Notes: a model not told the origin generated them from the letters alone. A DNA stretch of 64,000 nucleotides from Rhizobiaceae bacterium (GCA_040880025.1 JBBDJD010000007.1:64035-128034); one strand, 5' to 3'; shown: positions 21,056 to 41,846, numbered from the stretch's first letter. Translations and numbers: made by a program.

Positions 21056-21137
21056 TCCGGCCCCGGTCGTCCAACCGTATTGCGCGGCGGCCGGACATCG
21101 TTCACGCTTGGGGCCGTGTCGAGCATGGGAGGTTGAG

Positions 21138-22328: not shown

Positions 22329-22343
22329 ATACGGGCCGATCTG

Positions 22344-23237: not shown

Positions 23238-23363
23238 TTGAAGTTGTCCCGCAACGAAAGCACCGCCCATGTGGACGGCGCGAATCGGATCACAGCCGTT
23301 GGTCTGTTGGCCGCTTAGCCGAAATCGAACCCGCTTGCATCCGGCTTTCGTTAGGGATCGGCT

Positions 23364-23780: not shown

Positions 23781-23792
23781 GTTTTCCTCCCG

Positions 23793-24632: not shown

Positions 24633-24640
24633 TCAGGCTC

Positions 24641-25837
24641 TCACTGTATTGCGATTTCGAGGAAGGCGGCCACTGCCGCCCGAGCGAATTCCGGGTCATT
24701 GACGTGCAGCGGCAGGCGGACGATGCGGCGATCGTCTGTCTTCCTCGCGGTGGCCTCAAGCGCATCGAACAGGGCTGCGTCGGCGACAGGGTCGAAGAAC
24801 GCGCCGCCTTCGACATCGAGCGCCGATACACCCTTTTCCGGGATCAGGAATCGCACCGGCCCGTCGCAGGCGTTGAGCTTTGATCCAATCCACTCGCCGA
24901 TGTCGCGGCACTCGTCCGCCGTGGTCCGCATCAGCGTGACGTTGGGATTGTGCTTGTAGAGATTGCGGTCTTGGTAGCGCTGGGGAATCGTGTCCGGCGC
25001 CCAAAAATTGACCATGTCGAGAGCACCGGCCGAGCCGACATAAGGAATGCGCGTACGGGCGATGGCTCCAAAGCGGTCTTCGGTCGCGGGCAGCACGCCA
25101 CCCAACAGGAAGTCGCAGACCTCCGTTGTCGTGATGTCGATGACGCCCGTCAGCATGGCGCCGTCGGCGAGCTTCTCCATCGTGCGGCCACCGGCGCCGG
25201 TGGCGTGAAAAACCATGCAGTCGTAGTCCCCGCGGAGCTGCTCCGCGATGGCGGTCACGCAGGGTGTGGTGACCCCAAACATCGTCAGCCCGATCGCCGG
25301 CTTGTCCTCGGTCTTCGGAGCCGGATTCGCAGCCATCGCCGCGATCGCCTGGCCGGCATTGTGCAGGATGACGCGACTCAGTCGGTTCAAGCCCGCGATG
25401 TCGGTCACCGACGGCATCATGACGATGTCGGAGACGTCGACATAAGGCGCGGTGTCGCCGGAGGCGAGGGTCGAGACCATGATCTTGGGAACGCCGTAGG
25501 GCAGGCGGCGCATGCCGGCGGTTATGATTGCCGTGCCGCCGCCGCCGCCCAGTCCGATCATGCCTGCAATATCATTACGGGAGGCGGCGAAACTGGAAAA
25601 GGCCTCCGACATGGCCGCGACGGCCGCGCCGCGATCGTCAGTCCCGAGCGCTGCATCCGCCCCTTTGGGATGATGCCCCGCCACCTCGCCGGCGCCGATA
25701 TCGACCGGTATCGCCGGCGTGCGCGTACCGACGTCGACGAGCAGCGGATCGCCGCCCGCGGCGCGTATGACGCCGGCAAGATAGGCCAATTCCTCGCCTT
25801 TGGTGTCGGCAGTGCCGACGACGTAGATGCGCGCCAT
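24641..25837 (-). CDS. Tm-1-like ATP-binding domain protein (UPF0261)
   Basis: GTADTKGEE, GGGGT, FGVTTPCV, FHATGAGG, ALDMVNF, HVNDPEFA. Confidence 0.9.
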   Translation of the reverse strand: MARIYVVGTADTKGEELAYLAGVIRAAGGDPLLVDVGTRTPAIPVDIGAGEVAGHHPKGADAALGTDDRGAAVAAMSEAFSSFAASRNDIAGMIGLGGGGGTAIITAGMRRLPYGVPKIMVSTLASGDTAPYVDVSDIVMMPSVTDIAGLNRLSRVILHNAGQAIAAMAANPAPKTEDKPAIGLTMFGVTTPCVTAIAEQLRGDYDCMVFHATGAGGRTMEKLADGAMLTGVIDITTTEVCDFLLGGVLPATEDRFGAIARTRIPYVGSAGALDMVNFWAPDTIPQRYQDRNLYKHNPNVTLMRTTADECRDIGEWIGSKLNACDGPVRFLIPEKGVSALDVEGGAFFDPVADAALFDALEATARKTDDRRIVRLPLHVNDPEFARAAVAAFLEIAIQ

Positions 25838-25862
25838 TCCTCCTCCACCGCCGCAGCGCCGT

Positions 25863-25899
25863 CACGAAAGGCATTGCAATTTCGTGAGACGCGCGTATC
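25863..25899. promoter_or_regulatory. Candidate TetR operator(s)
   Basis: CACGAAA-N10-TTTCGTG and near-palindrome GAGAC-GCGC-GTATC in the 70-bp divergent gap. Confidence 0.4.
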
Positions 25900-25907
25900 G
25901 TATTGAT

Positions 25908-26540
25908 ATGGATGTCTCACGTCAACAACATGCGGAGGAAGCCCAGCGGGGGCCGCGGGCCAGGACGCGCCGGCTGATGCTGGAGACTGCGACACGTCTC
26001 ATGCAGGACGGCAAGACGCCCTCTGTGAGCGAAGTGGCGGAGGCGGCGGAAGTGTCACGTGCGACGGCTTACCGCTACTTCCCCAGCCAGGCGGCTCTGG
26101 TTCACGCCGTGGTCGACGAGGCATTGGGGCCGATCCTGACCTGGAGTTCCGCATCGAGTGATGCCGGCGAGCGGGTCGAAGACCTGTTCCGCAGTTCGAT
26201 GCCGCGCATAGGCGAATTCGAGGCCACGTTTCGCGCCGCGCTGAAACTGTCGCTCGAACAGGCGGCGCAGGGCGATGGAGGAGCGGAACCCGAACCCAGA
26301 TTCACGCGCGGCCATCGAGTCGATCTTTTGAGAGATGCGCTGCGTCCGCTGCGGGGCGCTATGCCGCCGAAACAAGTCGACCGGCTGGCTCAAGCGCTGT
26401 CGCTGCTGTTCGGCGTCGAAGCGCTGATCGTGCTGAAGGACATATGGGGCATGGACGAACGGCAGGCCTATTCGGTGGCGGAATGGGCCGCGTTGTCGCT
26501 CGTTCAGGCTGCCACGGCAGGAGGACAGGGCAGCGTATAG
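25908..26540 (+). CDS. TetR/AcrR family regulator
   Basis: SVSEVAEAAEVSRATAYRYFPS HTH. Confidence 0.92.
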   Translation: MDVSRQQHAEEAQRGPRARTRRLMLETATRLMQDGKTPSVSEVAEAAEVSRATAYRYFPSQAALVHAVVDEALGPILTWSSASSDAGERVEDLFRSSMPRIGEFEATFRAALKLSLEQAAQGDGGAEPEPRFTRGHRVDLLRDALRPLRGAMPPKQVDRLAQALSLLFGVEALIVLKDIWGMDERQAYSVAEWAALSLVQAATAGGQGSV

Positions 26541-26551
26541 GTCAAATCTCC

Positions 26552-26568
26552 ATCTGGTTAGACCAGAT
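26552..26568. promoter_or_regulatory. FadR/GntR-type operator A1
   Basis: ATCTGGT-TAG-ACCAGAT palindrome; its 12-nt core CTGGTTAGACCA recurs at 39138-39149. Confidence 0.7.
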
Positions 26569-26715
26569 CAATTGAGTTTATGTGCGATGCGGACCGAAGC
26601 CGGTGACGCATGGCAGGGGTATCTTGCCGACATTTCTCTTGGGAAAATCGTTTGAAATGTCGATAATCCCGGTGAAGTGAAGCGAAAAACCGAAAGGCGA
26701 ATCGTAGAGAAGGGC

Positions 26716-26748
26716 CTTGACGAAGCTTTGAGTTTGGTAATACCAGAT
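26716..26748 (+). promoter_or_regulatory. Sigma70-type promoter overlapped by operator B1
   Basis: CTTGAC followed by TTTGGTAATACCAGAT (26733-26748), which is 15/16 identical to 39315-39330. Confidence 0.65.
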
Positions 26749-26905
26749 TGGAAGTGGAGGCCGTGGAGGTAAGGGCCGGCATCACGATCTGGATGCGGAA
26801 TTTGGAAACAGGGTGCGACCGGAACCCAGACAGGGTCCGGCAGCGCCCGCAAGAGGCGCCATGCCGGCCGACGCGCTGGCGGAGTGCAAAACGGGAGGAA
26901 TGAAC

Positions 26906-28216
26906 ATGCGCAAGAAACTGACCGGTCTCGTGGCCGGACTAGCCTTTACGCTTGCCTGCGGAACCTCGGCGTTCGCGCAGGAGCTGACAATCTTCTGGGC
27001 CGAATGGGATCCCGCCAACTACCTGCAGGAACTCGTGAACGAGTATGAAGCCGAAACCGGCGTGAAGGTCACGGTGGAAACCACCCCGTGGTCGGACTTC
27101 CAGACGAAGGCATTCACCGAGTTCAACGCGCGGGGTTCCGCGTACGACATGGTTGTCGGCGATTCGCAGTGGATCGGCGCGGCTTCCGAATCTGGCCACT
27201 ATGTCGACCTGACCGACTTCTTCAACCAGCACAATCTGACCGAAGTCATGGCCCCGGCAACGGTCAAGTACTACGCCGAGTATCCATCGAACTCGGGCAA
27301 ATACTGGTCGATCCCGGCCGAGGGCGACGCGGTTGGCTGGTCCTATCGCAAGGACTGGTTCGAGGACCCGAAGGAGATGGAAGCGTTCAAGGCCAAGTAT
27401 GGCTACGATCTCGCCGTGCCGAAGACCTGGGCCGAGATGCGCGACATCGCGGAGTTCTTCCACCGTCCGGACGACAACCGCTACGGCATCGCCATCTACA
27501 CCGACAACTCCTATGACGGTCTGGTGATGGGCGTCGAGAACGCCATCTTCTCCTATGGCGGCGAGCTTGGAAACTACGAGACCTACGAGGTCGACGGCAT
27601 CATCAATTCGGAAGAGAACGTCAAGGCGCTCGAGATGTATCGCGAGCTCTACGGCTTTACCCCTCCGGGCTGGGCCAAGACCTTCTTCGTCGAGAACAAC
27701 CAGGCGATCACCGAGAACCTGGCTGCGATGAGCATGAACTACTTCGCCTTCTTTCCCGCGCTGGTGAACGAGGCGTCCAACCCCAATGCCGCGAATACCG
27801 GCTTCTTCGCCAATCCGGCGGGTCCGGGCGGCGACCAGTTCGCCGCACTCGGCGGTCAGGGCATCTCGATCGTGTCCTATTCGGAGAACCAGGAAGAGTC
27901 CTTCAAGTTCCTCGAATGGTTCATCAAGGACGATGTCCAGAAGCGCTGGGCGGAACTCGGCGGCTACACGGCGAGCGCCGCCGTGCTGGAATCGGATGAA
28001 TTCCAGAACGCAACGCCGTACAACAAGGCCTTCTACGAGACCATGTTCAAGGTGAAGGACTTCTGGGCGACGCCGGAATATGCCGAGCTGCTGATCCAGA
28101 TGAACCAGCGCATCTATCCGTTCATCACGGCGGGCGAAGGCTCGGCCAAGGAGTCGCTGGACGCGCTTGCCGCGGACTGGAAGGCGACGTTCGAGAAGTA
28201 CAACCGTTACGAGTAG
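26906..28216 (+). CDS. CUT1 sugar ABC transporter substrate-binding protein
   Basis: Signal peptide; SBP_bac_1-like pattern (YDMVVGDSQW, YRKDWF, PKTWAE); heads a permease/ATPase operon. Confidence 0.92.
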   Translation: MRKKLTGLVAGLAFTLACGTSAFAQELTIFWAEWDPANYLQELVNEYEAETGVKVTVETTPWSDFQTKAFTEFNARGSAYDMVVGDSQWIGAASESGHYVDLTDFFNQHNLTEVMAPATVKYYAEYPSNSGKYWSIPAEGDAVGWSYRKDWFEDPKEMEAFKAKYGYDLAVPKTWAEMRDIAEFFHRPDDNRYGIAIYTDNSYDGLVMGVENAIFSYGGELGNYETYEVDGIINSEENVKALEMYRELYGFTPPGWAKTFFVENNQAITENLAAMSMNYFAFFPALVNEASNPNAANTGFFANPAGPGGDQFAALGGQGISIVSYSENQEESFKFLEWFIKDDVQKRWAELGGYTASAAVLESDEFQNATPYNKAFYETMFKVKDFWATPEYAELLIQMNQRIYPFITAGEGSAKESLDALAADWKATFEKYNRYE

Positions 28217-28306
28217 CGGGGGCAATCTGCGAGGGGGCGGCAGTTTGCTGCCCCCTTGCTTCATTCTGCGGGCCATGCCCGTCATCGGCAAGGGAAGGAG
28301 TAGGGT

Positions 28307-29212
28307 TTGGCCAGCTTGGCTATGACGACGCTGGATCCGCGCTCGCGCGCCGCACGGCGCGGATGGAGCGACCTGACGATCCGCAACGCGTTCATTATCC
28401 CCACGATCGTCTTCCTGATCGTCTTCAATATTTTCCCGCTGCTTTATTCGCTCGGATACTCCTTCACGGATTTCCGCGCCTCGAGCAACGCGCCGGCCAA
28501 TTTCGTCGGGCTCGCGAACTACAAGGCGCTGCTCAACGACCCCTTCATCTGGCGCAACTTCGCGATCACGGCGAAATACGTGATCGTGTCGGTGGCCGGG
28601 CAGGTGGTCGTCGGCTTCGGCGTCGCGATGCTGCTCAACAGGACGATCCCCTTCAAGGGACTGATCACTACACTTCTGCTTTTGCCGATGATGCTGTCCA
28701 TGGCCGTGGTCGGGCTGTTCTGGAAACTGCTCTACGATCCGTCCTTCGGCATCATCAATTATGCGCTAGGCCTCGGCCGTTTCGAATGGCTGTCCAACCC
28801 GGACATGGCGCTCTACGCGGTGGCGATCACCGACATCTGGATGTGGTCGCCCTTCGTGATGCTGCTTTCGCTGGCCGGCCTTTCGGCCGTGCCCAAGCAT
28901 CTCTACGAGGCGGCGGCGATTGACCGGGCGGGGACGTATTACACCTTCTTCCGCATCACGCTGCCGCTGGTGGCGCCGATCCTGATGATCGCGATCATCT
29001 TCCGCACAATGGAAGCGTTCAAGACGTTCGACCTCGCCTACATCCTGACCAGCCAGCCGACCACCGAGGTTATTTCCATCCGGCTCTACAAGATGGCCTT
29101 CCAGGAGTGGCAGACCGGCATGTCGTGCGCACTGGCCTACATCATGCTGATCATGGTCGTGGCGATCACCAACATCTACGTGAAGTACCTGAACAAGGTG
29201 AAGGAGCGCTGA
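28307..29212 (+). CDS. Sugar ABC permease (MalF-like)
   Basis: NFVGLANY, EAAAID..FFRITLP EAA motif. Confidence 0.93.
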   Translation: MASLAMTTLDPRSRAARRGWSDLTIRNAFIIPTIVFLIVFNIFPLLYSLGYSFTDFRASSNAPANFVGLANYKALLNDPFIWRNFAITAKYVIVSVAGQVVVGFGVAMLLNRTIPFKGLITTLLLLPMMLSMAVVGLFWKLLYDPSFGIINYALGLGRFEWLSNPDMALYAVAITDIWMWSPFVMLLSLAGLSAVPKHLYEAAAIDRAGTYYTFFRITLPLVAPILMIAIIFRTMEAFKTFDLAYILTSQPTTEVISIRLYKMAFQEWQTGMSCALAYIMLIMVVAITNIYVKYLNKVKER

Positions 29213-29213
29213 G

Positions 29214-30173
29214 GTGGCTGCAGTAAGGACAACCTCCGAAGTCGCGCTCAACAGGCTGGCGATTGTCGCTGTCCTGGTCGTGACCATTATCTTCCTGGCG
29301 CCGATCTATTGGATCACCGCGACGGCATTCAAGCCCCGGAACCTCGCCACGACGATCCCCCCAACGGTCATGTTCGAGCCGGAGATATCGCCGTTCGTGA
29401 AGCTGTTCCTTCGGCGATCGCAGTTGCGCGAGCAGCCGACGGCGGAAGAATACGAGGCGGCGCCGTGGTGGGAACGCCTGGTGTTCGACGGCGGTGAGAA
29501 GGTTGTGCGTGACGGCAGGGGCGAGGTCCAGCTGTCCGGCTATCCGGACCGCTTCACCAATTCGCTGATCGTTGCGGTTGTGTCGACGGTGCTCGCCGTC
29601 GGCATGGGGACCTTGACCGCCTACGGCTTCTCGCGATTCAAGGTGGCGGGCGAACAGGACTGGCTGTTCTTCATATTATCGACGCGAATGCTGCCACCCG
29701 TCGTGGTGGCGATTCCGATGTTTCTGATGTACCGGGTGTTCGGCCTGAACGACACCCATATCGGGCTGATCATTCTCTATACGGCATTCAACATTTCCTT
29801 CTCGGTCTGGCTGATGAAGGGCTTCATCGACGAGATCCCCAAGGAGTACGAGGAAGCGGCACTTGTCGACGGCTATACGCGCATGCAGGCCTTCTTCAAG
29901 GTGGTGCTGCCGGAGGCCGCTACAGGCATCGCGGCAACCGCCGTCTTCTGCTTCATCATCGCCTGGAACGAATATGCCTTCGCGCTGATCATGACCAACA
30001 GGCGCGCGCAGACGGCGCCACCCTTCATTCCAAGTCAGGTCGGCTCGGGTCTGCCTGACTGGACGGTCATTGCGGCCGGCACCTTCCTGTTCCTGCTGCC
30101 GGTGGCCATCTTCACATTCCTCCTGCGCAACCATCTGCTCAGGGGCATGAGCTTCGGAGCAATCCGCAAATGA
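29214..30173 (+). CDS. Sugar ABC permease (MalG-like)
   Basis: EEAALVDG EAA motif, WNEYAFA. Confidence 0.93.
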   Translation: MAAVRTTSEVALNRLAIVAVLVVTIIFLAPIYWITATAFKPRNLATTIPPTVMFEPEISPFVKLFLRRSQLREQPTAEEYEAAPWWERLVFDGGEKVVRDGRGEVQLSGYPDRFTNSLIVAVVSTVLAVGMGTLTAYGFSRFKVAGEQDWLFFILSTRMLPPVVVAIPMFLMYRVFGLNDTHIGLIILYTAFNISFSVWLMKGFIDEIPKEYEEAALVDGYTRMQAFFKVVLPEAATGIAATAVFCFIIAWNEYAFALIMTNRRAQTAPPFIPSQVGSGLPDWTVIAAGTFLFLLPVAIFTFLLRNHLLRGMSFGAIRK

Positions 30174-30427
30174 GTTTCCGCGAACTCAACCGCCGCTTTC
30201 TCGAACCGGGCTCCATGTGGGTGATGATTTTCGGCATCGTGGCTTTGTGCCAGCCGTGGAACTTCCTGCTGCACCGTTACGGCGTCACCATCATCATCGT
30301 CGGCCTGATCGGATTCATCATCACATCGCATATCGGACCCGGCTCGGTCGGCGCCGAGGACGATGTGGAAGACGAGGCGTTCGACGTCTCCGACCACCGC
30401 GAGGGCAAGGCCGGGGGTCGCACATGA
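30170..30427 (+). CDS. Small two-TM membrane protein with acidic tail
   Basis: ATGA overlaps on both sides; hydrophobic core and EDDVEDE tail. Confidence 0.75.
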   Translation: MSFRELNRRFLEPGSMWVMIFGIVALCQPWNFLLHRYGVTIIIVGLIGFIITSHIGPGSVGAEDDVEDEAFDVSDHREGKAGGRT

Positions 30428-31527
30428 CGCATATCGAGCTTCGCGGCGTCCAGAAATGGTTCGGCAGCAACCAGGTTATCAAGGACATGAACCTGGAAAT
30501 CGCCGGCAACGAGTTCATCGTCATGCTTGGCCAGTCGGGCTGCGGCAAGACGACGACGCTGCGCGCCGTCGCGGGACTTGAGACCATCGACGAAGGCGAC
30601 ATCCTGATCGACGGCAAGCGGGTTCAGCACCTCAAGGCGTCGGACCGCGACATCGCGATGGTGTTCCAGTCCTTCTCGCTCTACCCGCACATGACGGTCT
30701 ATGAGAACATCGCCTTCCCGCTTCGAGCCACCCGGCTGAGCAAATCCGACATCGACCGGTCGGTGCGCGAGGTTGCCCGCGTGCTGCGCATCGCCGACCT
30801 TCTGCAAAGCAGACCGTCCGCGCTGTCGGGCGGCGACATGCAGCGCGTGGCGATTGGCCGGGCGCTCGTGCGTCAGCCGAAGGCGATGCTGATGGATGAG
30901 CCGATTGGCGCATTGGACACCAAGCTGCGCGAGGAAATGCGCGCCGAGATCAAGCGGCTGCACCTGAGACAAGGATCGACCACGATCTATGTCACTCACG
31001 ACCAGGTGGAGGCGATGAGCCTGGCGGATCGCATCGTCATCATGCATGAGGGGGTGCTTCAGCAGGTGGGAACGCCTGAAGAGGTTTATTCCGATCCGCA
31101 GAACCTCTTCGTTGCCCAGTTCGTCGGCAGCCCGGTGATGAACGTGACGGATGCCCGCATTACCGAGGAAGGTGGCGCGGTGCGGGTGCATCTCGATCCC
31201 AAGGACCCCGGTTTCGAGTTTCCGCGGGAGCTGCTTTCCAAGCTCAATGGACACATATCGGGCGGATTGTCGCTGGGCATCAGGCCGGAGGGCCTGCTCG
31301 TGTCGCGGGAGGCGAAATCCGGTTATGTGCCGCTCGAGGCGGGCATCATCGAACCGCTAGGCTCGCACGATATCGTCGACCTCAAGGTTGGCGACGGCAT
31401 GATACGGGCACGCACGCCGGCAGGCTTCGTGCCCAAGGTGGGGGAGAAGGTGCATACGCGCATCGATCCCGCGCAGGCGCATTTCTTTGACACCGGCAGC
31501 GGCAAGTCCCTGGGAGTAAGGCTCTAG
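30424..31527 (+). CDS. Sugar ABC ATP-binding protein (MalK-like)
   Basis: GQSGCGKT, LSGGDMQR, LMDEP, YVTHDQ, TOBE-like tail. Confidence 0.95.
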   Translation: MTHIELRGVQKWFGSNQVIKDMNLEIAGNEFIVMLGQSGCGKTTTLRAVAGLETIDEGDILIDGKRVQHLKASDRDIAMVFQSFSLYPHMTVYENIAFPLRATRLSKSDIDRSVREVARVLRIADLLQSRPSALSGGDMQRVAIGRALVRQPKAMLMDEPIGALDTKLREEMRAEIKRLHLRQGSTTIYVTHDQVEAMSLADRIVIMHEGVLQQVGTPEEVYSDPQNLFVAQFVGSPVMNVTDARITEEGGAVRVHLDPKDPGFEFPRELLSKLNGHISGGLSLGIRPEGLLVSREAKSGYVPLEAGIIEPLGSHDIVDLKVGDGMIRARTPAGFVPKVGEKVHTRIDPAQAHFFDTGSGKSLGVRL

Positions 31528-31529
31528 CG

Positions 31530-32606
31530 ATGGCTCATATCGAGCTCAGAAACATCACCAAGGTCTTCGGCGGGAAGTCGGCGCTGAAGGGACTGGATCT
31601 CGAAATCGAGGACGGTCAGTTCTTCGTTCTTCTGGGCGAGACCGGCGCCGGCAAGACCACGACGCTGCGCATCGTCGCGGGGCTGGAAAAGCCGACCGAG
31701 GGCGAGGTCCTCATCGATGGCGTCAACGTCAACGACTGGGGCGCGGCGGAGCGCGATGTGGCGCTGGTCCTGCAGCAATACTCGCTCTACCCGCGCTATA
31801 CCGTGCGGGAGAATCTGGAGTTTCCGCTCAAGTCGAAAATCCGCCGCGTCGAAGCGGCCGATATCGAAGGGCGCGTCAACCGCGTCGCCGAGACGCTGCA
31901 GATCGGACATCTGCTTGACCGCAAGACCGACAAGCTGTCCGGCGGCGAGATGCAGCGCGTCTCGATCGGCCGGGCCATCGTGCGCCAGCCGCGCGTGTTC
32001 CTGATGGACGAGCCGCTGTCGGCGCTCGACGCCAAGCTTCGCGAGGCGCTGCGCACCGAACTCAAGAACCTGCAGATGAATTTGGGCGCCACCTTCCTGT
32101 TCGTCACGCACGACCAGGTCGAAGCGCTGTCGATGGGCGACCGTATCGGGGTCCTCGACAGCGGCAAGCTGGTGCAGGTGGGCACGCCCGCGGAAGTCTA
32201 CGGCAATCCGAGAAACACTTTTGTGGCGCGTTCCGTCGGCTCGCCGCCGATGAACCTGATCGACGGAACGCTGTCGGGCGGACAGGCGGTGGCCGAGGCC
32301 GGTTTCAGCCTGCCGGTTGCCGCGAAGGCCAATGGCTCGACCGATGGCCGGCCGCTGACGTTCGGCATCCGTCCGGAAGACATGTTCCTCGCCCCCGGCG
32401 CGCCTGCTGCCGCGGAAGTGCACGATATCGAGAACCATGGCGTCGCCAAGATCGTGACGCTGCGCGCCGGCGACATGATGCTGCGACTCACCACGTCGGC
32501 GCGTGAGAAGCTCTCGATAGACGAAGCGGTGCGTTTTTCCTGGAATCCGGAGAAAGTCGTTCTGTTCGACAAGACCAGCGGGTTGAGCCTACGCCACAAT
32601 GCCTGA
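31530..32606 (+). CDS. Second sugar ABC ATP-binding protein
   Basis: GETGAGKT, LSGGEMQR, LMDEP, FVTHDQ. Confidence 0.95.
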   Translation: MAHIELRNITKVFGGKSALKGLDLEIEDGQFFVLLGETGAGKTTTLRIVAGLEKPTEGEVLIDGVNVNDWGAAERDVALVLQQYSLYPRYTVRENLEFPLKSKIRRVEAADIEGRVNRVAETLQIGHLLDRKTDKLSGGEMQRVSIGRAIVRQPRVFLMDEPLSALDAKLREALRTELKNLQMNLGATFLFVTHDQVEALSMGDRIGVLDSGKLVQVGTPAEVYGNPRNTFVARSVGSPPMNLIDGTLSGGQAVAEAGFSLPVAAKANGSTDGRPLTFGIRPEDMFLAPGAPAAAEVHDIENHGVAKIVTLRAGDMMLRLTTSAREKLSIDEAVRFSWNPEKVVLFDKTSGLSLRHNA

Positions 32607-32641
32607 TCGGCGCCTCCCTGGCGCGGCACACTCGCGAGGAG

Positions 32642-32680
32642 ACGACAGCCGTCCGACTAATCGGGCGGCTGTCGTTTATT
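32642..32680 (+). terminator. Intrinsic terminator of the ABC operon
   Basis: acgacagccgtccga-ctaa-tcgggcggctgtcgt followed by ttattt. Confidence 0.75.
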
Positions 32681-32743
32681 TGGCTGGTGAGAACCGCCCG
32701 CCTCGCCGGGAGCGAATTGTTCGTTGCTGAATATCGGAACCTC

Positions 32744-33346
32744 TCACAATTGAGGGGCTGTCTCTTGTAAAGACCTCCTGTCCAGCTGCGAGCCGAACCA
32801 TGCGGCCAAGGCCTGGTTCTTCTGCTTCCAGCCGGGGCAGAAACGATGCATGTCCATCAAATGGAGGGCGGAAGCGAGGGCTGCACCCCTGAACTCGCTG
32901 ACGGTCGGCAATGGCCGGGTGATCGCACGGTTGTTGAGAAAATCGAGACATCGCAGCATTCGATCCCGTTCAACCTCCAGGAGGAAGTCCGATTGCTCCT
33001 CCCTCGCCCGCCGGCCCTCGCGCACCCAAGTCGCGATCCCTTCGAGGAAGCCGGCAATCTGCCCTTCCTCAGCAACCATTGTCCAATCAACCTGAGCCGC
33101 AACATCCGGGGCCTTTGCACCGGCAAGATCCCTGACATAGGCGAATATGTTTCGGGCCTCGGTAATAACAAGGCCGGCATCGACAAGGGTCGGAACGCGG
33201 CCCACGGGGCTGAATTCCAGCACCGGGTTGTCGGCTTGGCGATTGGCGGCGAGGCGCTCTTCCGCATGCCCAAGAACGCCCCATTCGCGCAACGCGATCC
33301 GGGCGGTCCGGGCATAGGGAGAGTTTTGTGTATAGAAGAGGATCAT
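32744..33346 (-). CDS. Glutathione S-transferase family protein
   Basis: SPYARTARI, PVGRVPTL, ITEA..I..Y GST N-terminal motifs. Confidence 0.8.
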   Translation of the reverse strand: MILFYTQNSPYARTARIALREWGVLGHAEERLAANRQADNPVLEFSPVGRVPTLVDAGLVITEARNIFAYVRDLAGAKAPDVAAQVDWTMVAEEGQIAGFLEGIATWVREGRRAREEQSDFLLEVERDRMLRCLDFLNNRAITRPLPTVSEFRGAALASALHLMDMHRFCPGWKQKNQALAAWFGSQLDRRSLQETAPQL

Positions 33347-33504
33347 CGATGGTTCCCGCTGCCAACGTGCTGAAGGCATCCTACGGAAAATCGATATTAT
33401 TGTGATGGAAGACGCCTGGGATTGGTCGATCCGTCCGAGAGTGGAGGCGTCGGCGGTCGGCAATTGGCAACACCGGGTTGCGCTGAACCTGAAACGGGCG
33501 GCAC

Positions 33505-33810
33505 TTATCCCACCGGCATCGAACGAAGGTCGAGCCAGGACTTGATGCGTCTGAACTCTCCCTCGAAGGCCTTTTCCTTCAGCTCCTCGTAGACCAGCGA
33601 GCAGTACATCACGTCACCGCCGTTCAGTCTGCCGGACTTGGCGGCTTGCTCGCAGCCTAGATAGACGCCTTTCAGTTTGTCGATCGACATGGAACTGATG
33701 CGGGATGGCTCGTCGGCACGAGCGGCGTGAAGCACTCCGAGGGCGAAAATGAGTGCAGCGCCGAGCGGGGCGATACGAATAATGCGAGGCACGAGGCGTC
33801 CCGACATCAT
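33505..33810 (-). CDS. Small secreted hypothetical protein with two Cys
   Basis: Signal peptide ending ARA-D; YLGCE...YCSLVYEELK. Confidence 0.7.
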   Translation of the reverse strand: MMSGRLVPRIIRIAPLGAALIFALGVLHAARADEPSRISSMSIDKLKGVYLGCEQAAKSGRLNGGDVMYCSLVYEELKEKAFEGEFRRIKSWLDLRSMPVG

Positions 33811-33955
33811 TTCCTCCTGAAGGCCTGCGGCAGTGCCGGCCTGCGGGACGAATCGTAAGGAACCTTATGGCCTCCCGCATGAGACCGATGTCCCGGAGCA
33901 GCGAGGAATCGTCACGGTGAAGGGAAAATATGTGGGTCCGGGGTCCCAGGTGACT

Positions 33956-35014
33956 CTAAATGCCGTAGCCTGCGTCGCGAGCTCTGACGACTGCCTCCAC
34001 GCGTGTCGCTGATCCAAGCTTGTGGAGTATGGCCGAGAGATGGTTTCGAACGGTTTTTTCGGTGATCGCCAAGCGCGCGCTGATTGCATGATTGTCGAGG
34101 CCGCCTGCAACCAGATGCAGGACCTCGTGCTCGCGCGCGGTGAGTGCGGTGAACTCCGCGTTGTCCGCCGTCGCAGATGGCAGGAATTCGTGCATCGCCT
34201 CGGTGAACACCCGCCATGCCGGCTCGCCGCGAAGCATCAGGTGGTTAGGACTATCGAGCTCCATGAAAGTCGCGTTCGGGATCGTCTGTGCAAGGAATCT
34301 ACCCTCCTCGATAGGCGCAACGGCATCGCGGTCGGCATGGGCAACCAGCGTAGAGCAGGTTATATGCTCGGCGGCCCGGCCGACGTCGATATCAAACATG
34401 ATTCGCGTCAATTCCGCGGCGTTTTGCGCCGAGGCCGCGCGCCGTTGCAGTTCGCACCAGGAGCTCAAATGTTCCATCGAGCCTTCGGGCTGGAACTGTG
34501 TAGCGAAGGATCGCATGAAAGCGCTGTCCGCCTCTCTCCATCCCAACTCGATCATCTCAATCATTACCTTGGCCTTTTCGGGTTCAAGGGGCGGCGATGA
34601 CCGCCTGTTCCTGCCCCTTGCGTAGGCACCGTAGAGGATCAGATGGCCGATGCGCCCGGGGTTCCTTTCGGCATATTTGATCGCGACGGCGCCACCCTGG
34701 CAGATACCGATCGAAGCGAACTGATTCAGCTCCAGCTTCGCGACGAGTCTCTCGAAGTCAAGGACCCAAGTTTCGAAGGAAAGATCCGATACATCGCGTT
34801 CCGACAGGCCGCAACCTCTTGGGTCGTATCTGATCAGCGTGTATCGCGTCTCAAGTTCTTCGAGCCACGGCTGCCATGCCTCGCTGCGACCCTGGTATTC
34901 GAGATGCGTCAGCCAGCTCGGCATTAGCACCACTGGCGGGCCGCTCCCCGAGACCGCATAGGCAATCCGGGCACCGTCGAAGCTCCTGAAGTAGCGTACC
35001 TGCTGGCCCGGCAT
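33956..35014 (-). CDS. Alpha/beta-hydrolase-fold + LuxR HTH transcriptional regulator
   Basis: YDPRGCGLS, GICQGG elbow, DRD, NHL; C-terminal LTARE..VL.L...G.DN..I...L.ITEKTVRNH. Confidence 0.9.
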   Translation of the reverse strand: MPGQQVRYFRSFDGARIAYAVSGSGPPVVLMPSWLTHLEYQGRSEAWQPWLEELETRYTLIRYDPRGCGLSERDVSDLSFETWVLDFERLVAKLELNQFASIGICQGGAVAIKYAERNPGRIGHLILYGAYARGRNRRSSPPLEPEKAKVMIEMIELGWREADSAFMRSFATQFQPEGSMEHLSSWCELQRRAASAQNAAELTRIMFDIDVGRAAEHITCSTLVAHADRDAVAPIEEGRFLAQTIPNATFMELDSPNHLMLRGEPAWRVFTEAMHEFLPSATADNAEFTALTAREHEVLHLVAGGLDNHAISARLAITEKTVRNHLSAILHKLGSATRVEAVVRARDAGYGI

Positions 35015-35113
35015 TATGTCGATCCTCAGGTAGTCGGCTGCAGAACTCTAACAGCCTTGGACCCGCATTGCACGAGGCCGAGCTAATCCAGCATGGTTGA
35101 TCGGAGAGGTCGA

Positions 35114-35163
35114 CCCTCGTCCTGAGCGGTGAGCTTGTCGAACGGTCGAACCGTCGAAGGATG
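35114..35163 (+). repeat. REP-like element (ccctcRtcctgagc...gtcgaaggatg), composite copy
   Basis: Shares both arms with the reverse complement of 44116-44142; contains internal gagcttgtcgaac units. Confidence 0.55.
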
Positions 35164-35240
35164 GGCGCTCTTTGACAATGGCCAGACGGCGCAACAGCCG
35201 GGTGTGGCGATGATGAATGGTGAGCGGCTGAGACGCGGCG

Positions 35241-36224
35241 TCAGACCGCAACGTCAGGAAACCGCTTCCGGTAGGCGTCCAGCACTTCGGGATTGCAGAA
35301 ATTGAGCGGCAATTGACCGGCGAGAACACGCGCGGCTTCCTCGGCCGCCCCTATCCCCATGCGCCGCATGCTGCCCTCGGTGATGCCGGCCATATGCGGC
35401 GTCACAATTACATTGTCGAAGCTGAAATACGGATGACCCGGCGGCAGCGGCTGGGTGGCGAAAACGTCGAGCGCGGCCCCGCCGATGCGATTTTCCCTGA
35501 GCGCCGCGATCATCGCGTCGTCGTCGATGACCGGTCCGCGCGACGGGTTGATGATGAGCGCCGTCGGCTTCATCAGCCCGAGCAGCCGCGCATCGACCAG
35601 CCCGCGCGTCTCTTCGGTGAGCGGGCAGCAAAGGGCGATGATGTCGGACTTGGCGGCGAGTTCGTCCAGTTCAACGAAGCGGGATCCGGCCGGCGCGTCG
35701 CGCCTGCTGCGGCTGTGGATCAGAACGTCGAGGCCGAAGCCGTGCACCCCGATGTCACACACCCGCCGCCCGATATTGCCGAAACCGATGATGCCCAGCG
35801 TGCGCCCGTCGAGGTCGCCCGCGAGGTCTGCCTGGCGTCGGGCAACGGCCCAGCCCTCGCTTCGCAGTTCGCGGTCGAGAATGCGGAAGCGGCGCAGCAG
35901 CGTCATTGCGGCGAAGAATACATATTCGGCGACGGTGCGCGCGTTGACGCCCGGCGTGTTTGCAACCAGCACGCCGGCGTGGTTGGCGGCCTGCATCGGG
36001 ATCATGTCGAGCCCGGCGCCGTGGCGGATTGCCGCGCGCAACCCGGAGGCCCGTTCGAACAATGCCGGCGGAAGCGGCGCCCGGACTATCAGGATATCCG
36101 CCCCGGTTCCCTCGCGCAGCAAGGTGTCAGGATCGGGCGCGGAGGCGAAACGCAGGTCGCCCAGCTTCGCCAGCATTGCCGCCGCGTCGGGATGCAGATT
36201 ATGCGTGGAGAATATTTCCGGCAC
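35241..36224 (-). CDS. D-isomer-specific 2-hydroxyacid dehydrogenase
   Basis: HGAGLD, GIIGFGNIG, INPSRG, DVF..PL, TPHMAG. Confidence 0.93.
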   Translation of the reverse strand: MPEIFSTHNLHPDAAAMLAKLGDLRFASAPDPDTLLREGTGADILIVRAPLPPALFERASGLRAAIRHGAGLDMIPMQAANHAGVLVANTPGVNARTVAEYVFFAAMTLLRRFRILDRELRSEGWAVARRQADLAGDLDGRTLGIIGFGNIGRRVCDIGVHGFGLDVLIHSRSRRDAPAGSRFVELDELAAKSDIIALCCPLTEETRGLVDARLLGLMKPTALIINPSRGPVIDDDAMIAALRENRIGGAALDVFATQPLPPGHPYFSFDNVIVTPHMAGITEGSMRRMGIGAAEEAARVLAGQLPLNFCNPEVLDAYRKRFPDVAV

Positions 36225-36229
36225 GGCGC

Positions 36230-36946
36230 CTACGCGTTTTCGAGTTCCGGGCTGGGCTTGCCCGCGCCCGGACCGCGGATGAGGCCTTTCCAGTAGCTTT
36301 CGGCGCCCTGCAGATGCGCGCTCATCAGCGCCTGGGCGAGGTTGCCGTCGCGGCGCACAAGCGCCTCGAAGATCTGGATATGCTCGGCATGCGAGCGCCG
36401 CCCGCGTTCGGGATCGGAGAAATAGACCGGCAGGCGCTGTTCGCCCATCACGTAATAGATGCTGCAGATTTTGTGGAACACGCTGTTCTTGGTCGCCCGG
36501 ACGATCTCCAGATGAAAATCGCGATCCTCGCGTGCGAGCGGCTCGCCCGCTTCGACCTTCTTCTCCGAGATTGCCAGGATTTCGCGCAGTCGTTCGAAAT
36601 TCTCCTCCGTCGCGCGGCTGCAGGCCAGTTCGGCGGCCTTGATCTCGTGGATCTTCCGCAATTCCACCGTTTCGTAGATCTGGATCGGATCAAGCGGCAG
36701 GCCGGCTTTCGCGAACAGCGCCAGTGCCTCGACGCTGGTATCGGTGGTGGTCAGATAGATGCCGGATTTGGCGCGGCGCTCCACGATGCGCATGGCCTCC
36801 AATATGGCGAGCGCCTCGCGTATCTGGCCGCGGCTGACGGAAAAATGCTCGGCCAGTTCGCGCTCGGAAGGCGTGCGGCCCTTTTCCGTATTGGAATAGG
36901 TGTAGAGATACGCCGCGAGATCGGGCAGCAGACTGTTTTCTTTCAT
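36230..36946 (-). CDS. FadR-subfamily GntR regulator (FCD)
   Basis: PSERELAEHFSVSRGQIREAL wHTH; DRDFH...SHAEH..I FCD. Confidence 0.92.
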   Translation of the reverse strand: MKENSLLPDLAAYLYTYSNTEKGRTPSERELAEHFSVSRGQIREALAILEAMRIVERRAKSGIYLTTTDTSVEALALFAKAGLPLDPIQIYETVELRKIHEIKAAELACSRATEENFERLREILAISEKKVEAGEPLAREDRDFHLEIVRATKNSVFHKICSIYYVMGEQRLPVYFSDPERGRRSHAEHIQIFEALVRRDGNLAQALMSAHLQGAESYWKGLIRGPGAGKPSPELENA

Positions 36947-36948
36947 CG

Positions 36949-38118
36949 TCAGCAGCTTTGCGCGTGTTTCTCCACGAAACGCTCGGAGATCGTGAAGCCC
37001 AATCCTGGAGTCTCGGGAATCGCAACCATACCATCCTCCGCCTTTACGGTCTCCCCAATCAGATCATGGATCATCGGATTAGCGCCGAGCGAGAATTCGA
37101 TGACGAAGCTGGCCGGAGATGCGGCGCAAACATGCAAGCCGGCGAAGAAGCATGGGGCGCCGGCCCAAAGATGCGGCGCCAGGCGCAGGTTGAACGCGCT
37201 GGCGATCGCACCGATGCGCATCGCTTCGGTAATGCCGCCGCAGAAGGCCGGATCGGGCTGGAAAATGTCGGCGGCGCGCAGCACCGCGAGTTCGCGGAAG
37301 GCGAACCGCGTCGCCTCGGACTCGCCGGCCGCGATCGGCACCGGGCCCGCGGCGCGGACCTCCGCCATGCCGCGCTTGTCGTCCGCGATCACCGGCTCCT
37401 CGAACCAGGCGAGGTCGCAATCGGCGACCATGTGGATGAACCGCTTGGCATCGGCGACCGTGTAGGTGCCGTGCGCATCGACCATGAGATCGACATCCGG
37501 CCCGATCGCGTCTCGCGCGGCGCGCACGCGGGCGGCCGAGACGTGGGGCGCGCCGTCCATCGCGCCGACCCGCATCTTCACGGCCTTGAAGCCACCCGAC
37601 TTGATGTAGGAGTTGAGCTGATCGCCGATGCCGCCGGCATCCGCCCAGCCTCCGGAGGCATAGGCCGGCAGACGCTCGGCCTTGCGTCCGCCCAGAAGCT
37701 GCCAGACGGGCTGTCCCAGCGACTTGCCCAGAATATCCCACAACGCGATGTCGACCGCGCTGATGGCGGCGATCGTCAGCCCCCGGCGCGACAATTCCGG
37801 CATGGCGTGACCCGCCTCGGCCGCGAGTTCGCTGCGCACGCCGTTATAGATCGAATCCCAGATCGCGCTGATGTCGCCGGCATGGCGGCCGACGAGCATC
37901 GGGCCGATCTCGTGGTTGATCAGGTGAACCAGCGTGCCATAGATGCCGGCGCTGCCCGCCGCGTTCTTTCCTTCGCCCCAGCCGACGAGGCCATCGTCGG
38001 TCTCGATGCGCACAATGGCGGAGTCGAATGTCCGCAGGCGGCCGAAATCGCTGCGATGCTGACGCTTCGCCTCGATCGGGATCTTGACCCACCACGCCTG
38101 AACCTTGTTGATGCGCAT
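36949..38118 (-). CDS. Mandelate racemase/muconate lactonizing enzyme (enolase superfamily)
   Basis: GWGE, VDIALWD, KAVKMR, MVDAH, FEEP, GE, HLW. Confidence 0.93.
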   Translation of the reverse strand: MRINKVQAWWVKIPIEAKRQHRSDFGRLRTFDSAIVRIETDDGLVGWGEGKNAAGSAGIYGTLVHLINHEIGPMLVGRHAGDISAIWDSIYNGVRSELAAEAGHAMPELSRRGLTIAAISAVDIALWDILGKSLGQPVWQLLGGRKAERLPAYASGGWADAGGIGDQLNSYIKSGGFKAVKMRVGAMDGAPHVSAARVRAARDAIGPDVDLMVDAHGTYTVADAKRFIHMVADCDLAWFEEPVIADDKRGMAEVRAAGPVPIAAGESEATRFAFRELAVLRAADIFQPDPAFCGGITEAMRIGAIASAFNLRLAPHLWAGAPCFFAGLHVCAASPASFVIEFSLGANPMIHDLIGETVKAEDGMVAIPETPGLGFTISERFVEKHAQSC

Positions 38119-38173
38119 GTCGCTCACCGCATTGGCGACGCTGGCGCGCCGCCAACTCCCGCCGGCCTGACGG

Positions 38174-39061
38174 CTATTTCATCAACGGCAGAAGAGTTTC
38201 CGCCGTGATGCGCATCTGGTCGGTGTAGAACTTTTCGGTCAGCACGCTGGAGCCGTGGTCCTGGATGAACTTCAGCTGCTCGGGCGAGATGTCGACGGGA
38301 TTGCGCTCGACCATGTCGGGATACCGATTGGCTGGCGTGCGGTCCACCGGCGCGACGAATTCGTTGGTCAGCGCGCCGTCATAGCCGATATCCTTGAGGA
38401 TGCCGACGATCCTCTTCCAGTCGATCGTGCCGAGCCCGGCGGCGAAGCGGTTGTTGTCCGCGACATGGAAGTCGAACAGGCGCTTGCCGGCCGTGCGGAT
38501 CGCCTCCTCCACATCGAACTCCTCCATGTGGATATGGTAGGCGTCGAGGCAGACACCGCATTCGGGGCTGACGGCGTCGGCCAGCGCCATGGCCTGCTCG
38601 CCGCGGTTGAAGAGATATGTCTCGAAGCGGTTGAGCGGTTCGACCGCCACCCGCACCCCGACTTTCTTGGCATGGGTGAAGCATTCGCGGGTCGCGTCCA
38701 CAACCCAGCCCCATTCCTCTTCCTCGGTGCCGTCAGGCACCACCTTGCCGACGGTGGCGGGCACCAGCGTGATGATTTCGCCGTCGATCTCGCTGACCAT
38801 GGTGAGCACGTCCTTGACGTATTGAACCGAGCGTTCGCGCTGGCCCTGGTCTCTTGCCGCGAGATTGCGTTCGCCCAGCATCAGCGTGACCGCGCCCCAG
38901 CAGCGAATGCCATGTTCCTTCAGGAGGGCGCGGGTCTCATTGGTCTTGTACTGCTCTGGCTCGCCGGAAATCTCGATCGACTCGTAGCCGAATTGCTTGA
39001 TCCGCTTCAACGTCACTTCCAGCGGTTCGGCGCGCATCCAGTTGTGCGTCGAAAGATGCAT
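38174..39061 (-). CDS. Sugar phosphate isomerase/epimerase (xylose-isomerase-like TIM barrel)
   Basis: VEPLNRFE, LDAYH, FHVADNNR, TNEF metal ligands. Confidence 0.9.
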   Translation of the reverse strand: MHLSTHNWMRAEPLEVTLKRIKQFGYESIEISGEPEQYKTNETRALLKEHGIRCWGAVTLMLGERNLAARDQGQRERSVQYVKDVLTMVSEIDGEIITLVPATVGKVVPDGTEEEEWGWVVDATRECFTHAKKVGVRVAVEPLNRFETYLFNRGEQAMALADAVSPECGVCLDAYHIHMEEFDVEEAIRTAGKRLFDFHVADNNRFAAGLGTIDWKRIVGILKDIGYDGALTNEFVAPVDRTPANRYPDMVERNPVDISPEQLKFIQDHGSSVLTEKFYTDQMRITAETLLPLMK

Positions 39062-39135
39062 GATCCCGTCCTCCCGATAGGCTCGCGGCTTGGGCGCAAT
39101 CGGCCGTACCGCGGTGATTTGGTTCGTTGGCACCA

Positions 39136-39152
39136 AACTGGTTAGACCAATT
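39136..39152. promoter_or_regulatory. FadR/GntR-type operator A2
   Basis: AACTGGT-TAG-ACCAATT; core identical to A1; about 75 bp upstream of the 39061 start. Confidence 0.7.
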
Positions 39153-39296
39153 CGAACTCCTGAATTCGTCTAACTGATTATCCCGAACGCCGCAAGCGTA
39201 TGTCTCCGTACCGCCTGCATGGCCGAAATGGCAAGAAATGCTGTGCCAACCATGAAATCCGGCGGGATCGAACCGCCGTCTAAGACAATGTCTCGC

Positions 39297-39330
39297 CTTG
39301 ACCTCGCCCATGCGTTTGGTATTACCAGAT
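39297..39330 (+). promoter_or_regulatory. Sigma70-type promoter overlapped by operator B2
   Basis: CTTGAC followed by TTTGGTATTACCAGAT (39315-39330). Confidence 0.65.
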
Positions 39331-39427: not shown

Positions 39428-40486
39428 ATGGGAAGATCGATGAAAGGCCCAGGGATATTTCTGGCACAGTTTGCGGGGGATGGGGCGCCGTTCGATTCAC
39501 TGGGGAGCATTGCGCGCTGGGCGGGCGAATTTGGCTACAAGGGGGTGCAGATACCGAGCTGGGACGGGCGGCTGTTCGACCTTGAGAAGGCGGCAGGTTC
39601 GAAGGACTATTGCGACGAGGTGAAGGGGGTGTGCGCTGAGGCCGGCGTTGAAGTGACGGAGCTGTCGTCGCACCTGCAGGGGCAGCTGGTGGCGGTTCAT
39701 CCGGCCTATGACGCGGCGTTCGACGGGTTCGCGCCGCAGAGCGTGCATGGCAACCCGAAGGCCAGGCAGGAATGGGCGGTCGAGCAGGTCAAGATGGGGG
39801 CGAAGGCAAGCCGCAACATGGGGCTCGACGTCTCGGTCGGGTTCTGCGGGGCGCTGGCGTTTCCTTATCTCTATCCGTGGCCGCAGCGCCCGGCGGGTCT
39901 GATCGAGGAGGCGTTCGGCGAGCTTGCCAGGCGCTGGAAGCCGATCCTCGACGTCTATGAGGATAACGGGGTCGACTACGCCTACGAGATCCATCCGGGC
40001 GAGGACGTGTTCGACGGGGCGACGTTCGAGCTGTTTCTGGAGGCCTTGAAGGGCCACAAGCGCTGCACGATCAATTACGATCCCTCGCACTTCGTCCTGC
40101 AGCAGCTGGATTATCTGGCCTTCATCGACATCTATCACGAGCGCATCACGGCCTTCCATGTGAAGGATGCGGAGTTCAACCCGACGGGCCGTCAGGGGGT
40201 CTATTCGGGCTATGCCTCATGGATGGAGCGGGCGGGCCGGTTCAGGAGCCTCGGCGACGGCCAGGTGGACTTTGCCGGCATCTTCTCCAGGCTTGCGCAA
40301 TACGGCTATGACAGCTGGGCGGTGCTTGAGTGGGAATGCGCGATCAAGAGTTCGGCGCAGGGAGCGGCCGAAGGCGCGCCGTTCATCGCCGCCCACATCA
40401 TCGAGGTGACGGATGTGGCCTTCGACGACTTTGCCGGCGGCACGACCGACAAGGCCGCGCTCAGGAAGATGATGGGGATTGGATGA
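39428..40486 (+). CDS. Sugar phosphate isomerase/epimerase (TIM barrel, IolI-like)
   Basis: GIFLAQF, YEIHPGED, YDPSH, FHVKDAE, LEWEC. Confidence 0.9.
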   Translation: MGRSMKGPGIFLAQFAGDGAPFDSLGSIARWAGEFGYKGVQIPSWDGRLFDLEKAAGSKDYCDEVKGVCAEAGVEVTELSSHLQGQLVAVHPAYDAAFDGFAPQSVHGNPKARQEWAVEQVKMGAKASRNMGLDVSVGFCGALAFPYLYPWPQRPAGLIEEAFGELARRWKPILDVYEDNGVDYAYEIHPGEDVFDGATFELFLEALKGHKRCTINYDPSHFVLQQLDYLAFIDIYHERITAFHVKDAEFNPTGRQGVYSGYASWMERAGRFRSLGDGQVDFAGIFSRLAQYGYDSWAVLEWECAIKSSAQGAAEGAPFIAAHIIEVTDVAFDDFAGGTTDKAALRKMMGIG

Positions 40487-40603
40487 GCGAATAGTGAGTA
40501 GCGAGTAGCGAACGGGGCAGGCCGGCAAAGCTTGTCCGGGGTCCATTCGCGAAGTTCATCCTACTCGCTACTCGCTACTCGCTACTCGCTACTCGCTACT
40601 CAC
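40487..40603. repeat. Heptamer tandem repeat forming an inverted-repeat hairpin
   Basis: (CTACTCG)5-CTACTCA at 40561-40602; complementary arm at 40494-40511 pairs perfectly over 18 bp with 40586-40603. Confidence 0.9.
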
Positions 40604-40618
40604 GGGAGGGAACCGACA

Positions 40619-41812: not shown

Positions 41813-41846
41813 AGGGGGCGGAAATGGAGAACGGGAGGCCTGCTGC

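Follow-up and report, generated by a model that had tools for sequence, protein, structure and literature searches.

In a 64,000-nucleotide stretch of Rhizobiaceae bacterium DNA (GCA_040880025.1 JBBDJD010000007.1:64035-128034; the window, with positions counted from its first letter) we analyzed four palindromes that form two pairs, A1-B1 upstream of a sugar ATP-binding cassette (ABC) transporter operon and A2-B2 between two divergent catabolic operons, here called the minus and plus operons. The palindromes are very likely the operators of the FadR/FCD-type regulator encoded at 36230-36946, and we infer from the sequence that this regulator binds and represses at all four. Cooperative binding of the A and B sites through DNA looping appears to be the best explanation of the layout and is the reading that we lean towards. 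The four sites and their promoters are as follows.

26552-26568, no strand: A1 operator, a perfect 17-bp palindrome ATCTGGTTAGACCAGAT without a promoter; auxiliary.
26716-26721, plus strand: -35 CTTGAC of the ABC-operon promoter, invariant in 21 aligned sequences.
26732-26748, no strand: B1 main operator GTTTGGTAATACCAGAT, overlapping the -10 TAATAC (26738-26743).
39136-39152, no strand: A2 operator AACTGGTTAGACCAATT, centred at about +17 of the minus-operon promoter.
39168-39196, minus strand: inferred minus-operon promoter, with -35 CTTGCG (39196-39191), a 17-nt spacer and -10 TTAGAC (39173-39168).
39297-39302, plus strand: -35 CTTGAC of the plus catabolic operon promoter, a conserved block in the spacer alignment.
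39314-39330, no strand: B2 main operator GTTTGGTATTACCAGAT, overlapping the -10 TATTAC (39320-39325).

String comparison located CTGGTTAGACCA at 26554-26565 and 39138-39149 with 12/12 identity, and TTTGGTA(A/T)TACCAGAT was present at 26733-26748 and 39315-39330. The centre-to-centre distance was 180 bp for A1-B1 (26560 to 26740) and 178 bp for A2-B2 (39144 to 39322). The strings, the 12/12 identity and both spacings given in the original prediction were therefore confirmed, and A1 was found to extend beyond the 12 bp quoted there to a full, perfect 17-bp palindrome. The core TGGTNNNACCA, of the form TGGT-N3-ACCA, occurs in exactly 4 copies in the whole 64-kb window where 0.32 are expected, and 4 copies were reached in 0/100 dinucleotide-preserving shuffles of the window. 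Using a weight matrix trained on 160 orthologous sites, the four sites scored 24-27 bits while the next best position in the 64 kb scored 4.5 bits, and the scan detected no further operators in the window. The central triplet separates the two site types consistently (A-type TnG, B-type AwT), and in A2, B1 and B2 the half-site facing the partner is the weaker one, with TTGGT instead of CTGGT.

The two B sites coincide with promoters. Each follows its CTTGAC by 11 or 12 nt (26716-26721 and 39297-39302), as had been predicted, and they overlap the -10 because the conserved blocks pair a CTTGAC -35 with a B site. The prediction that the B sites cover the likely -10 gained a further element here, as the B-site core TGGTAATAC also fits an extended -10, TGnTAATAC. 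In the ABC upstream region, CTTGAC always lies 11 nt ahead of TTTGGTA (window plus 20 orthologous regions). The placement of A2 differs from that of the B sites in that it lies downstream of its promoter, at about +17 from the predicted start, and not over the -10; besides the minus-operon promoter blocks, viewed on the plus strand as TCTAnnGCA ... GCAAG, nothing else near A2 is conserved. For a Mesorhizobium close to locus L048, RNA-seq contigs span the region, and the contig ends define no start sites; the window itself derives from a metagenome of sediment for which the runs are all DNA. The two intergenic regions of the window align only at the operators and at GCCTTGAC (-35). A recent duplication of the control region was considered and rejected on these grounds; as the regions share nothing beyond the operators and the -35, the likeness is one of architecture.

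The gene for the candidate regulator lies in one of the operons that it would control.

36230-36946, minus strand: regulator gene, GntR winged helix-turn-helix plus FCD (FadR group), third gene of the minus operon.

The protein carries an N-terminal winged-helix GntR domain (PF00392, E = 1.7e-10, above the gathering score) and a C-terminal all-helical FCD domain (PF07729, E = 1.5e-24), and its orthologues are annotated as FadR/GntR family regulators. The nearest solved relatives are PmiR, NanR, DhdR (deposited as PdhR) and LldR, the fold neighbors are all FCD regulators, and the protein is without a NanR-like N-terminal extension. The AlphaFold2 model has seven effector-domain helices (69-80, 87-111, 114-133, 138-150, 155-176, 179-197 and 201-223), the first of which (69-80) is modeled at low confidence (predicted local distance difference test, pLDDT, roughly 40-60). 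As modeled, the regulator belongs to the FadR group (seven helices) rather than the VanR group (six). TGGT-N3-ACCA had been named as a FadR-subfamily operator type, and the motif is indeed the canonical form of the subfamily, for which the consensus TKGT-N3-ACMA has been published (Suvorova et al., PMC4494728); all four sites have the FadR/FCD operator form TNGT-N3-ACNA. The A1 half-sites ATCTGGT/ACCAGAT are also those of the E. coli fadBA FadR operator, and the two operators agree at 15/17 positions (PMC4259882). The regulator co-occurs with the four sites in all orthologous loci examined, whether these were fetched by the regulator or by the binding protein, and its gene sits in the A2-controlled minus operon, so that it would be autoregulated through A2. 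The proposal that this FadR co-represses the ABC operon and both catabolic operons is thus backed by comparative evidence, namely a regulator gene inside a controlled operon, the co-occurrence with the sites, and B sites that lie over conserved promoters.

To assess conservation, 80 of at least 315 orthologous loci in the genome collection were fetched with the regulator protein, covering Mesorhizobium, Chelativorans, Aquibium, Kumtagia, Pseudaminobacter, Ferirhizobium and metagenome-assembled genomes (MAGs). A metagenome set fetched with the B-type DNA pattern yielded 34 usable loci, and an annotated plasmid set contributed 10 loci, from Rhizobium johnstonii 3841 pRL12, R. etli CFN42 p42f, R. 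gallicum, Sinorhizobium meliloti 1021 pSymA and LMB1, S. medicae, S. fredii, Sinorhizobium sp. K101 and two Phyllobacterium. The layout recurs in more than 100 related genomes, including those of Mesorhizobium, Chelativorans, Aquibium, Phyllobacterium, Rhizobium and Sinorhizobium, and A2 is retained in about 100 loci. Conservation ahead of the ABC operon is limited to A1, CTTGAC-N11-TTTGGTAATACCAGATTG (the -35 plus B1), and the Shine-Dalgarno sequence with the start codon. For the divergent region, an ungapped alignment of 33 spacers with less than 75% mutual identity showed conservation confined to A2 (AACTGGTTnGACCAATTGGG), the leftward promoter, an AT-rich patch at the midpoint, and CTTGACC plus B2. 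Motif conservation in orthologous regions, proposed earlier as a check, was therefore found for both the sites and their arrangement across several genera.

Some relatives carry additional sites. In a MAG (locus L004, 19500-19920) a third A/B pair lies between divergent TetR and UPF0261 (Tm-1-like) genes, its centres 178 bp apart at 19569 and 19747. Its B3 site, CTTGAC-N11-TTTGGTAATACCAGAT, faces a UPF0261 / PEP-hydrolase / cupin operon, suggesting that this neighboring operon joined the regulon via the same two-site module. A further exact site, TGGTCGGACCA, directly adjoins the plus-operon -35 in L007 (2362-2372) and in L116 (32 bp ahead of B2); it lies three helical turns from B2 and is a lineage-specific third operator.

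The distance between the paired sites was compared across the relatives. An A-type site was present upstream of each of 157 B-type promoter-operators, at 143-180 bp in all but one, where the distance was 85 bp; the third pair of L004 is among them, and the count covers B sites with 265 bp or more of sequence ahead of them, which that of L087 lacks. A2 and B2 are exactly 180 bp apart in 61/71 genomes, whereas the distances from operator to start codon in the same divergent region vary far more, with standard deviations (sd) of 11 and 19 bp. The free spacer of about 95 bp shows only 36% identity in the ungapped alignment. Because 180 bp is fixed while the free spacer is 36% identical, it is the length of the spacer that is preserved and not its sequence, and this comparison makes a strong case for a constraint on spacer length. 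Among 110 non-redundant pairs, 52 were spaced at 180 bp, 39 at 172-179 bp, 11 at 163-170 bp, 3 at 155-157 bp, 4 at 143-146 bp and 1 at 85 bp.

Site A1 is the member of the four that lacks a promoter, and it adjoins the gene in front of the ABC operon.

25827-26540, plus strand: TetR-family gene (Pfam), with its 3' end adjoining A1 and its stop codon at 26538-26540.

A1 begins 12 bp past the TetR stop codon, and the TetR gene is co-directional with the ABC operon. The order TetR 3' end, A1, B1, binding-protein gene (SBP) was kept in 21/21 sequences with both genes in reach (window plus 20 genomes), including L027, where it is kept though the whole block is inverted relative to the regulator. 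The arrangement was found again in Rhizobium, Sinorhizobium and Phyllobacterium. The position of A1 ranges from 11 bp inside the TetR reading frame to 38 bp past the stop codon. It is as well conserved as the promoter-proximal sites and is the best palindrome of the four, and no conserved promoter block accompanies it in the 21 aligned sequences. Since A1 is conserved like the promoter-proximal sites, and without a promoter, in several genera, its role as a functional auxiliary operator is well supported by the comparison. The original prediction had offered two readings of A1, an auxiliary operator or the trace of a lost gene, and the first of these stands. That A1 is the leftover operator of a lost divergent gene is highly improbable. 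In favor of such a relic, the equivalent site A2 in the divergent region does serve a leftward promoter; the promoter blocks that accompany A2 are however missing beside A1, A1 is under obvious purifying selection, and the TetR-A1-B1-SBP order is kept from the 21 sequences of the first set to the Rhizobium, Sinorhizobium and Phyllobacterium loci.

The position of A1 also bears on a simpler scheme in which four independent operators act without a loop, A2, B2 and B1 each repressing its own promoter and A1 serving as a stand-alone roadblock or TetR trimmer. As a roadblock, A1 would stall RNA polymerase near the TetR stop codon and so stop read-through into the ABC operon. We consider this scheme, including the roadblock, unlikely but worth serious weight. 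It agrees with the location of A1 0-38 bp past the TetR stop codon, sometimes overlapping the stop, and with the lack of any conserved intrinsic terminator between TetR and the ABC operon; between A1 and B1 there is one weak candidate in the window (26611-26629), and neither the A1-B1 spacer nor the 5' untranslated region (UTR) yielded a credible small open reading frame (ORF) or known RNA element. However, B1 would already stop read-through, so a second roadblock gains little, and the A site persists in two loci without a TetR gene ahead of it. In L110, A1 shares a divergent region with a UPF0261 gene and is 155 bp from B1, and in L022 an A-like site 85 bp from B1 adjoins a different divergent gene. 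Independent operators would also leave unexplained the 143-180 bp between A1 and B1 despite turnover of the spacer sequence, the fixed 180 bp between A2 and B2 with varying flanks, and the validity of the distance rule for A sites with a different role (A2, and A3 in L004).

Looping through paired sites would place the middle of each spacer at the apex of a loop, and both spacers of the window are AT-rich there.

26641-26667, no strand: AT-rich patch in the A1-B1 spacer, 67% AT, midpoint 26650.
39225-39243, no strand: AT-rich patch in the A2-B2 spacer, midpoint 39233.

Among the relatives, the AT fraction of the central 25 bp was 0.64 in the divergent regions compared to 0.46 in the rest of the spacer (p = 6e-11), and 0.54 in the ABC regions of non-redundant loci compared to 0.45 (p = 3.5e-4). 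Spacer centres are also richer in A/T tracts. A terminator as the source of the T-rich midpoint was rejected, as no conserved intrinsic terminator is present. The midpoint fits a bendable or protein-bent loop apex, and other readings of it are possible. One such reading is that the spacing is set by a third protein at the AT-rich midpoint (an activator, IHF or HU) that is phased with the promoters, with A and B not touching. The semi-conserved AT-rich element itself speaks for this, as do matches to the IHF consensus within one mismatch in 34% of the relatives' spacers compared to 4.5% of shuffles. The two patches of the window are AT-rich only, with no good IHF match in either, and phasing of an activator with promoters would not explain the conservation and place of the promoterless A1. 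We regard a third protein acting in place of A-B contact as improbable, and its presence would be compatible with looping rather than opposed to it, as the Gal repressosome needs HU at its apex.

The looping model that we favor would work as follows. Without a sugar or sugar-acid inducer, a regulator dimer would bind each site, with B1 and B2 covering the extended -10 of the ABC-operon and plus-operon promoters, and with A2 just downstream of the minus-operon start so that the repressor would also regulate its own gene. Some 17 helical turns separate each B site from the upstream A site with which it would cooperate, the dimers on the two sites touching as a dimer of dimers, possibly aided by a DNA-bending protein at the AT-rich midpoint. 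This contact would close a loop of about 180 bp and raise the occupancy of both sites. The loop at 39136-39330 would enclose both divergent promoters, while A1, which has no promoter of its own, would anchor the loop at the ABC promoter and may also block TetR read-through. A more elaborate version, in which a seven-helix FadR-group regulator, of a class usually seen as plain dimers, builds a Gal-like repressosome (two dimers plus a bending protein) with loop lengths stepping by the helical turn, and in which A1 is also a roadblock that ties the TetR / Tm-1-like operon to the sugar regulon, seems doubtful to us.

DNA looping had been raised in the original prediction as a possibility, and it is plausible given a spacer length held despite scrambled sequence, a multimodal spacing with steps of about 11 bp, and a solved case from the same family, Atu1419 of Agrobacterium fabrum. 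Atu1419 is a tetrameric FCD/VanR-group GntR repressor for which a loop was seen by electron microscopy (PMC7797058). The two palindromes that it recognizes in a divergent region are separated by 190 bp, with one covering a -10, and at a second promoter it has a main and a degenerate site 109 bp apart (PMC7797058). The likeness lies in a GntR winged helix-turn-helix plus FCD protein of the same bacterial order, in paired sites in a divergent region, and in a second promoter with a main and an auxiliary site. The window pairs at 180 and 178 bp conform to the layout of this system, with operators 100-200 bp apart and one over the core promoter. The systems differ in that Atu1419 is a six-helix VanR-group tetramer on a 10-bp ATGTATACAT, whereas the regulator here is seven-helix with a 17-bp TGGT-N3-ACCA site, and in that the auxiliary site of Atu1419 lies in the regulated ORF and the one here lies upstream, at the 3' end of another gene. 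For the subfamily, divergons whose two sites keep a constant distance were considered probably cooperative (Suvorova et al., PMC4494728).

In looping repressors in general, operator spacing is confined to whole helical turns. The spacing was multimodal (143-146, 155-157, 163-170 and 172-180 bp), with about 11 bp between modes. This period is within the range usual for apparent helical repeats of looping in vivo. A single clade contains spacings of 176, 166, 156 and 146 bp, reflecting several indels and not one, and within each of seven genomes the A1-B1 distance falls 9-11 bp short of the A2-B2 distance. We quantified the periodicity using the following sets of spacings; these tests ignore phylogeny, and related sequences make their p-values optimistic.

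Pairs except those at 180 bp: n = 58, period 11.3 bp, R 0.60, p <0.001 compared to jitter and uniform nulls.
Pairs at or below 172 bp, outside the main mode: n = 20, period 11.8 bp, R 0.60, p ~0.006-0.009.
Distinct values counted once each: n = 22, period 11.6 bp, R 0.45, p 0.08-0.13.

These data are suggestive of helical phasing. An initial picture of sharply quantized spacings (146, 156, 166 and 176 bp) softened after the Rhizobium and Sinorhizobium loci were added. Several observations weigh against phasing or against a loop, beginning with the optimism of the p-values just described. The periodicity of the distinct values was not significant (p = 0.08-0.13). The spacings of S. meliloti (163-165 bp) and of S. 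fredii and S. medicae (172-174 bp) fall between modes. The A1-B1 spacing at the ABC promoter has an sd of 5.1, not tighter than the sd of 7.4 for the 5' UTR length. The regulator is in the seven-helix FadR group, the solved members of which are mostly dimers, and this point, together with phasing evidence that is only moderate, also favors the scheme of four independent operators. A third factor bound to the AT patch could account for part of the constancy of the 180-bp spacing in the divergent region. The precedent is also distant, as Foldseek ranked Atu1419 22nd with 18% identity to the regulator and phmmer gave no hit between the two at E <= 10, and because of the latter our claim is that the regulator works like Atu1419 and not that it is an orthologue.

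Other well-studied regulators share parts of the layout. For E. coli LldR at lldPRD, a loop between O1 and O2 has been proposed, with the dimers in the same angular orientation (Aguilera et al. 2008, as cited in PMC8689689). LldR resembles our regulator as a FadR-group FCD protein with two operators flanking a promoter, and it is among the sequence, NCBIfam and fold neighbors; it differs in having a single promoter, in that LldR also activates, and in having no promoterless operator beside a neighbor gene. At about 130 bp, the LldR operators lie closer to each other than the pairs here. E. coli FadR at fadBA has identical half-sites, ATCTGGT-N3-ACCAGAT, and the same domain architecture, and it differs as a dimer at single sites that senses acyl-CoA, with no known loop architecture and a protein 13-16% identical to the regulator in the fold alignment. 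In the GalR/HU, LacI O1-O3 and AraC O2-I1 loops, 90-210 bp separate the auxiliary from the main operator, repression is phase-dependent and the promoter is inside the loop, and at gal an architectural protein binds the AT-rich apex. These belong to unrelated protein families, and here an architectural protein is only hinted at by the AT patch. A literature search on the operator strings returned only the Pseudomonas D-LldR operator and nothing on the regulon of the window.

The genes that the four sites would control form three operons.

26906-32606, plus strand: CUT1-type sugar ABC operon (Pfam, synteny), with a binding protein, two permeases and two ATPases.
35241-39061, minus strand: minus catabolic operon (Pfam, NCBIfam), with gene order kept in 80 loci.
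39428-42698, plus strand: plus catabolic operon, with a TIM barrel (IolE-like), a GFO/IDH/MocA oxidoreductase and a TIM barrel (psicose-epimerase-like).

In the aligned upstream regions the ABC operon has a conserved ATG and a GGGAGGAA Shine-Dalgarno sequence. The minus operon encodes a sugar-phosphate isomerase/epimerase-like TIM barrel, an enolase-superfamily dehydratase, the regulator and a 2-hydroxyacid dehydrogenase, with intergenic gaps of 46, 2 and 5 bp. None of the pathway enzymes reached an NCBIfam equivalog cut-off, and the closest solved structures to the enolase-superfamily protein are unnamed 'mandelate racemase-like' proteins. The substrate of the pathway is presumably a carbohydrate or sugar acid. 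The TetR gene itself is outside the regulon in the window genome, and its true start is probably near 25908.

The content of the locus varies among the relatives. In Mesorhizobium-type loci the plus operon has a TIM barrel, a GFO/IDH/MocA oxidoreductase and a TIM barrel, and in Rhizobium, Sinorhizobium, some Chelativorans and Ferirhizobium only the last TIM-barrel gene is present, directly after B2 (window 39428-41812 compared to L117, L119 and L124). Between the dehydrogenase gene and the ABC operon, the window carries a GST gene and an alpha/beta-hydrolase-LuxR(GerE) fusion gene (32744-35014), both absent from this place in all relatives examined and therefore a window-specific insertion. 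A neighbor block (window 20955-26540) always accompanies the ABC operon, from Mesorhizobium to Rhizobium and Sinorhizobium; it consists of M24 Xaa-Pro peptidase-like, cupin, PEP-hydrolase-like, UPF0261 (Tm-1-like ATP-binding) and divergent TetR genes, and in the window an EamA gene is inserted within it. The first ATPase ORF (30217-31527, 436 aa) has about 70 additional N-terminal residues (window 30173-30480), where Rhizobium and Sinorhizobium annotations have a separate 66-67 aa hypothetical gene overlapping the permease stop and the ATPase start. The ATPase start in the window is probably further downstream than that of this ORF.

Together these data define a tight three-operon regulon for an uncharacterized carbohydrate or sugar-acid pathway, with a high-confidence operator model that is usable to annotate the regulon. 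The locus is also present in tractable model rhizobia (R. johnstonii 3841 pRL12, R. etli CFN42 p42f and S. meliloti 1021 pSymA), and the regulator's orthologue in R. johnstonii 3841 is RL_RS35845. Should the loop prove real, the spacings from 143 to 180 bp would provide a natural series for tests of phase dependence, and looping, so far a matter of one VanR-group protein (Atu1419), would reach into the FadR group, which is much larger.

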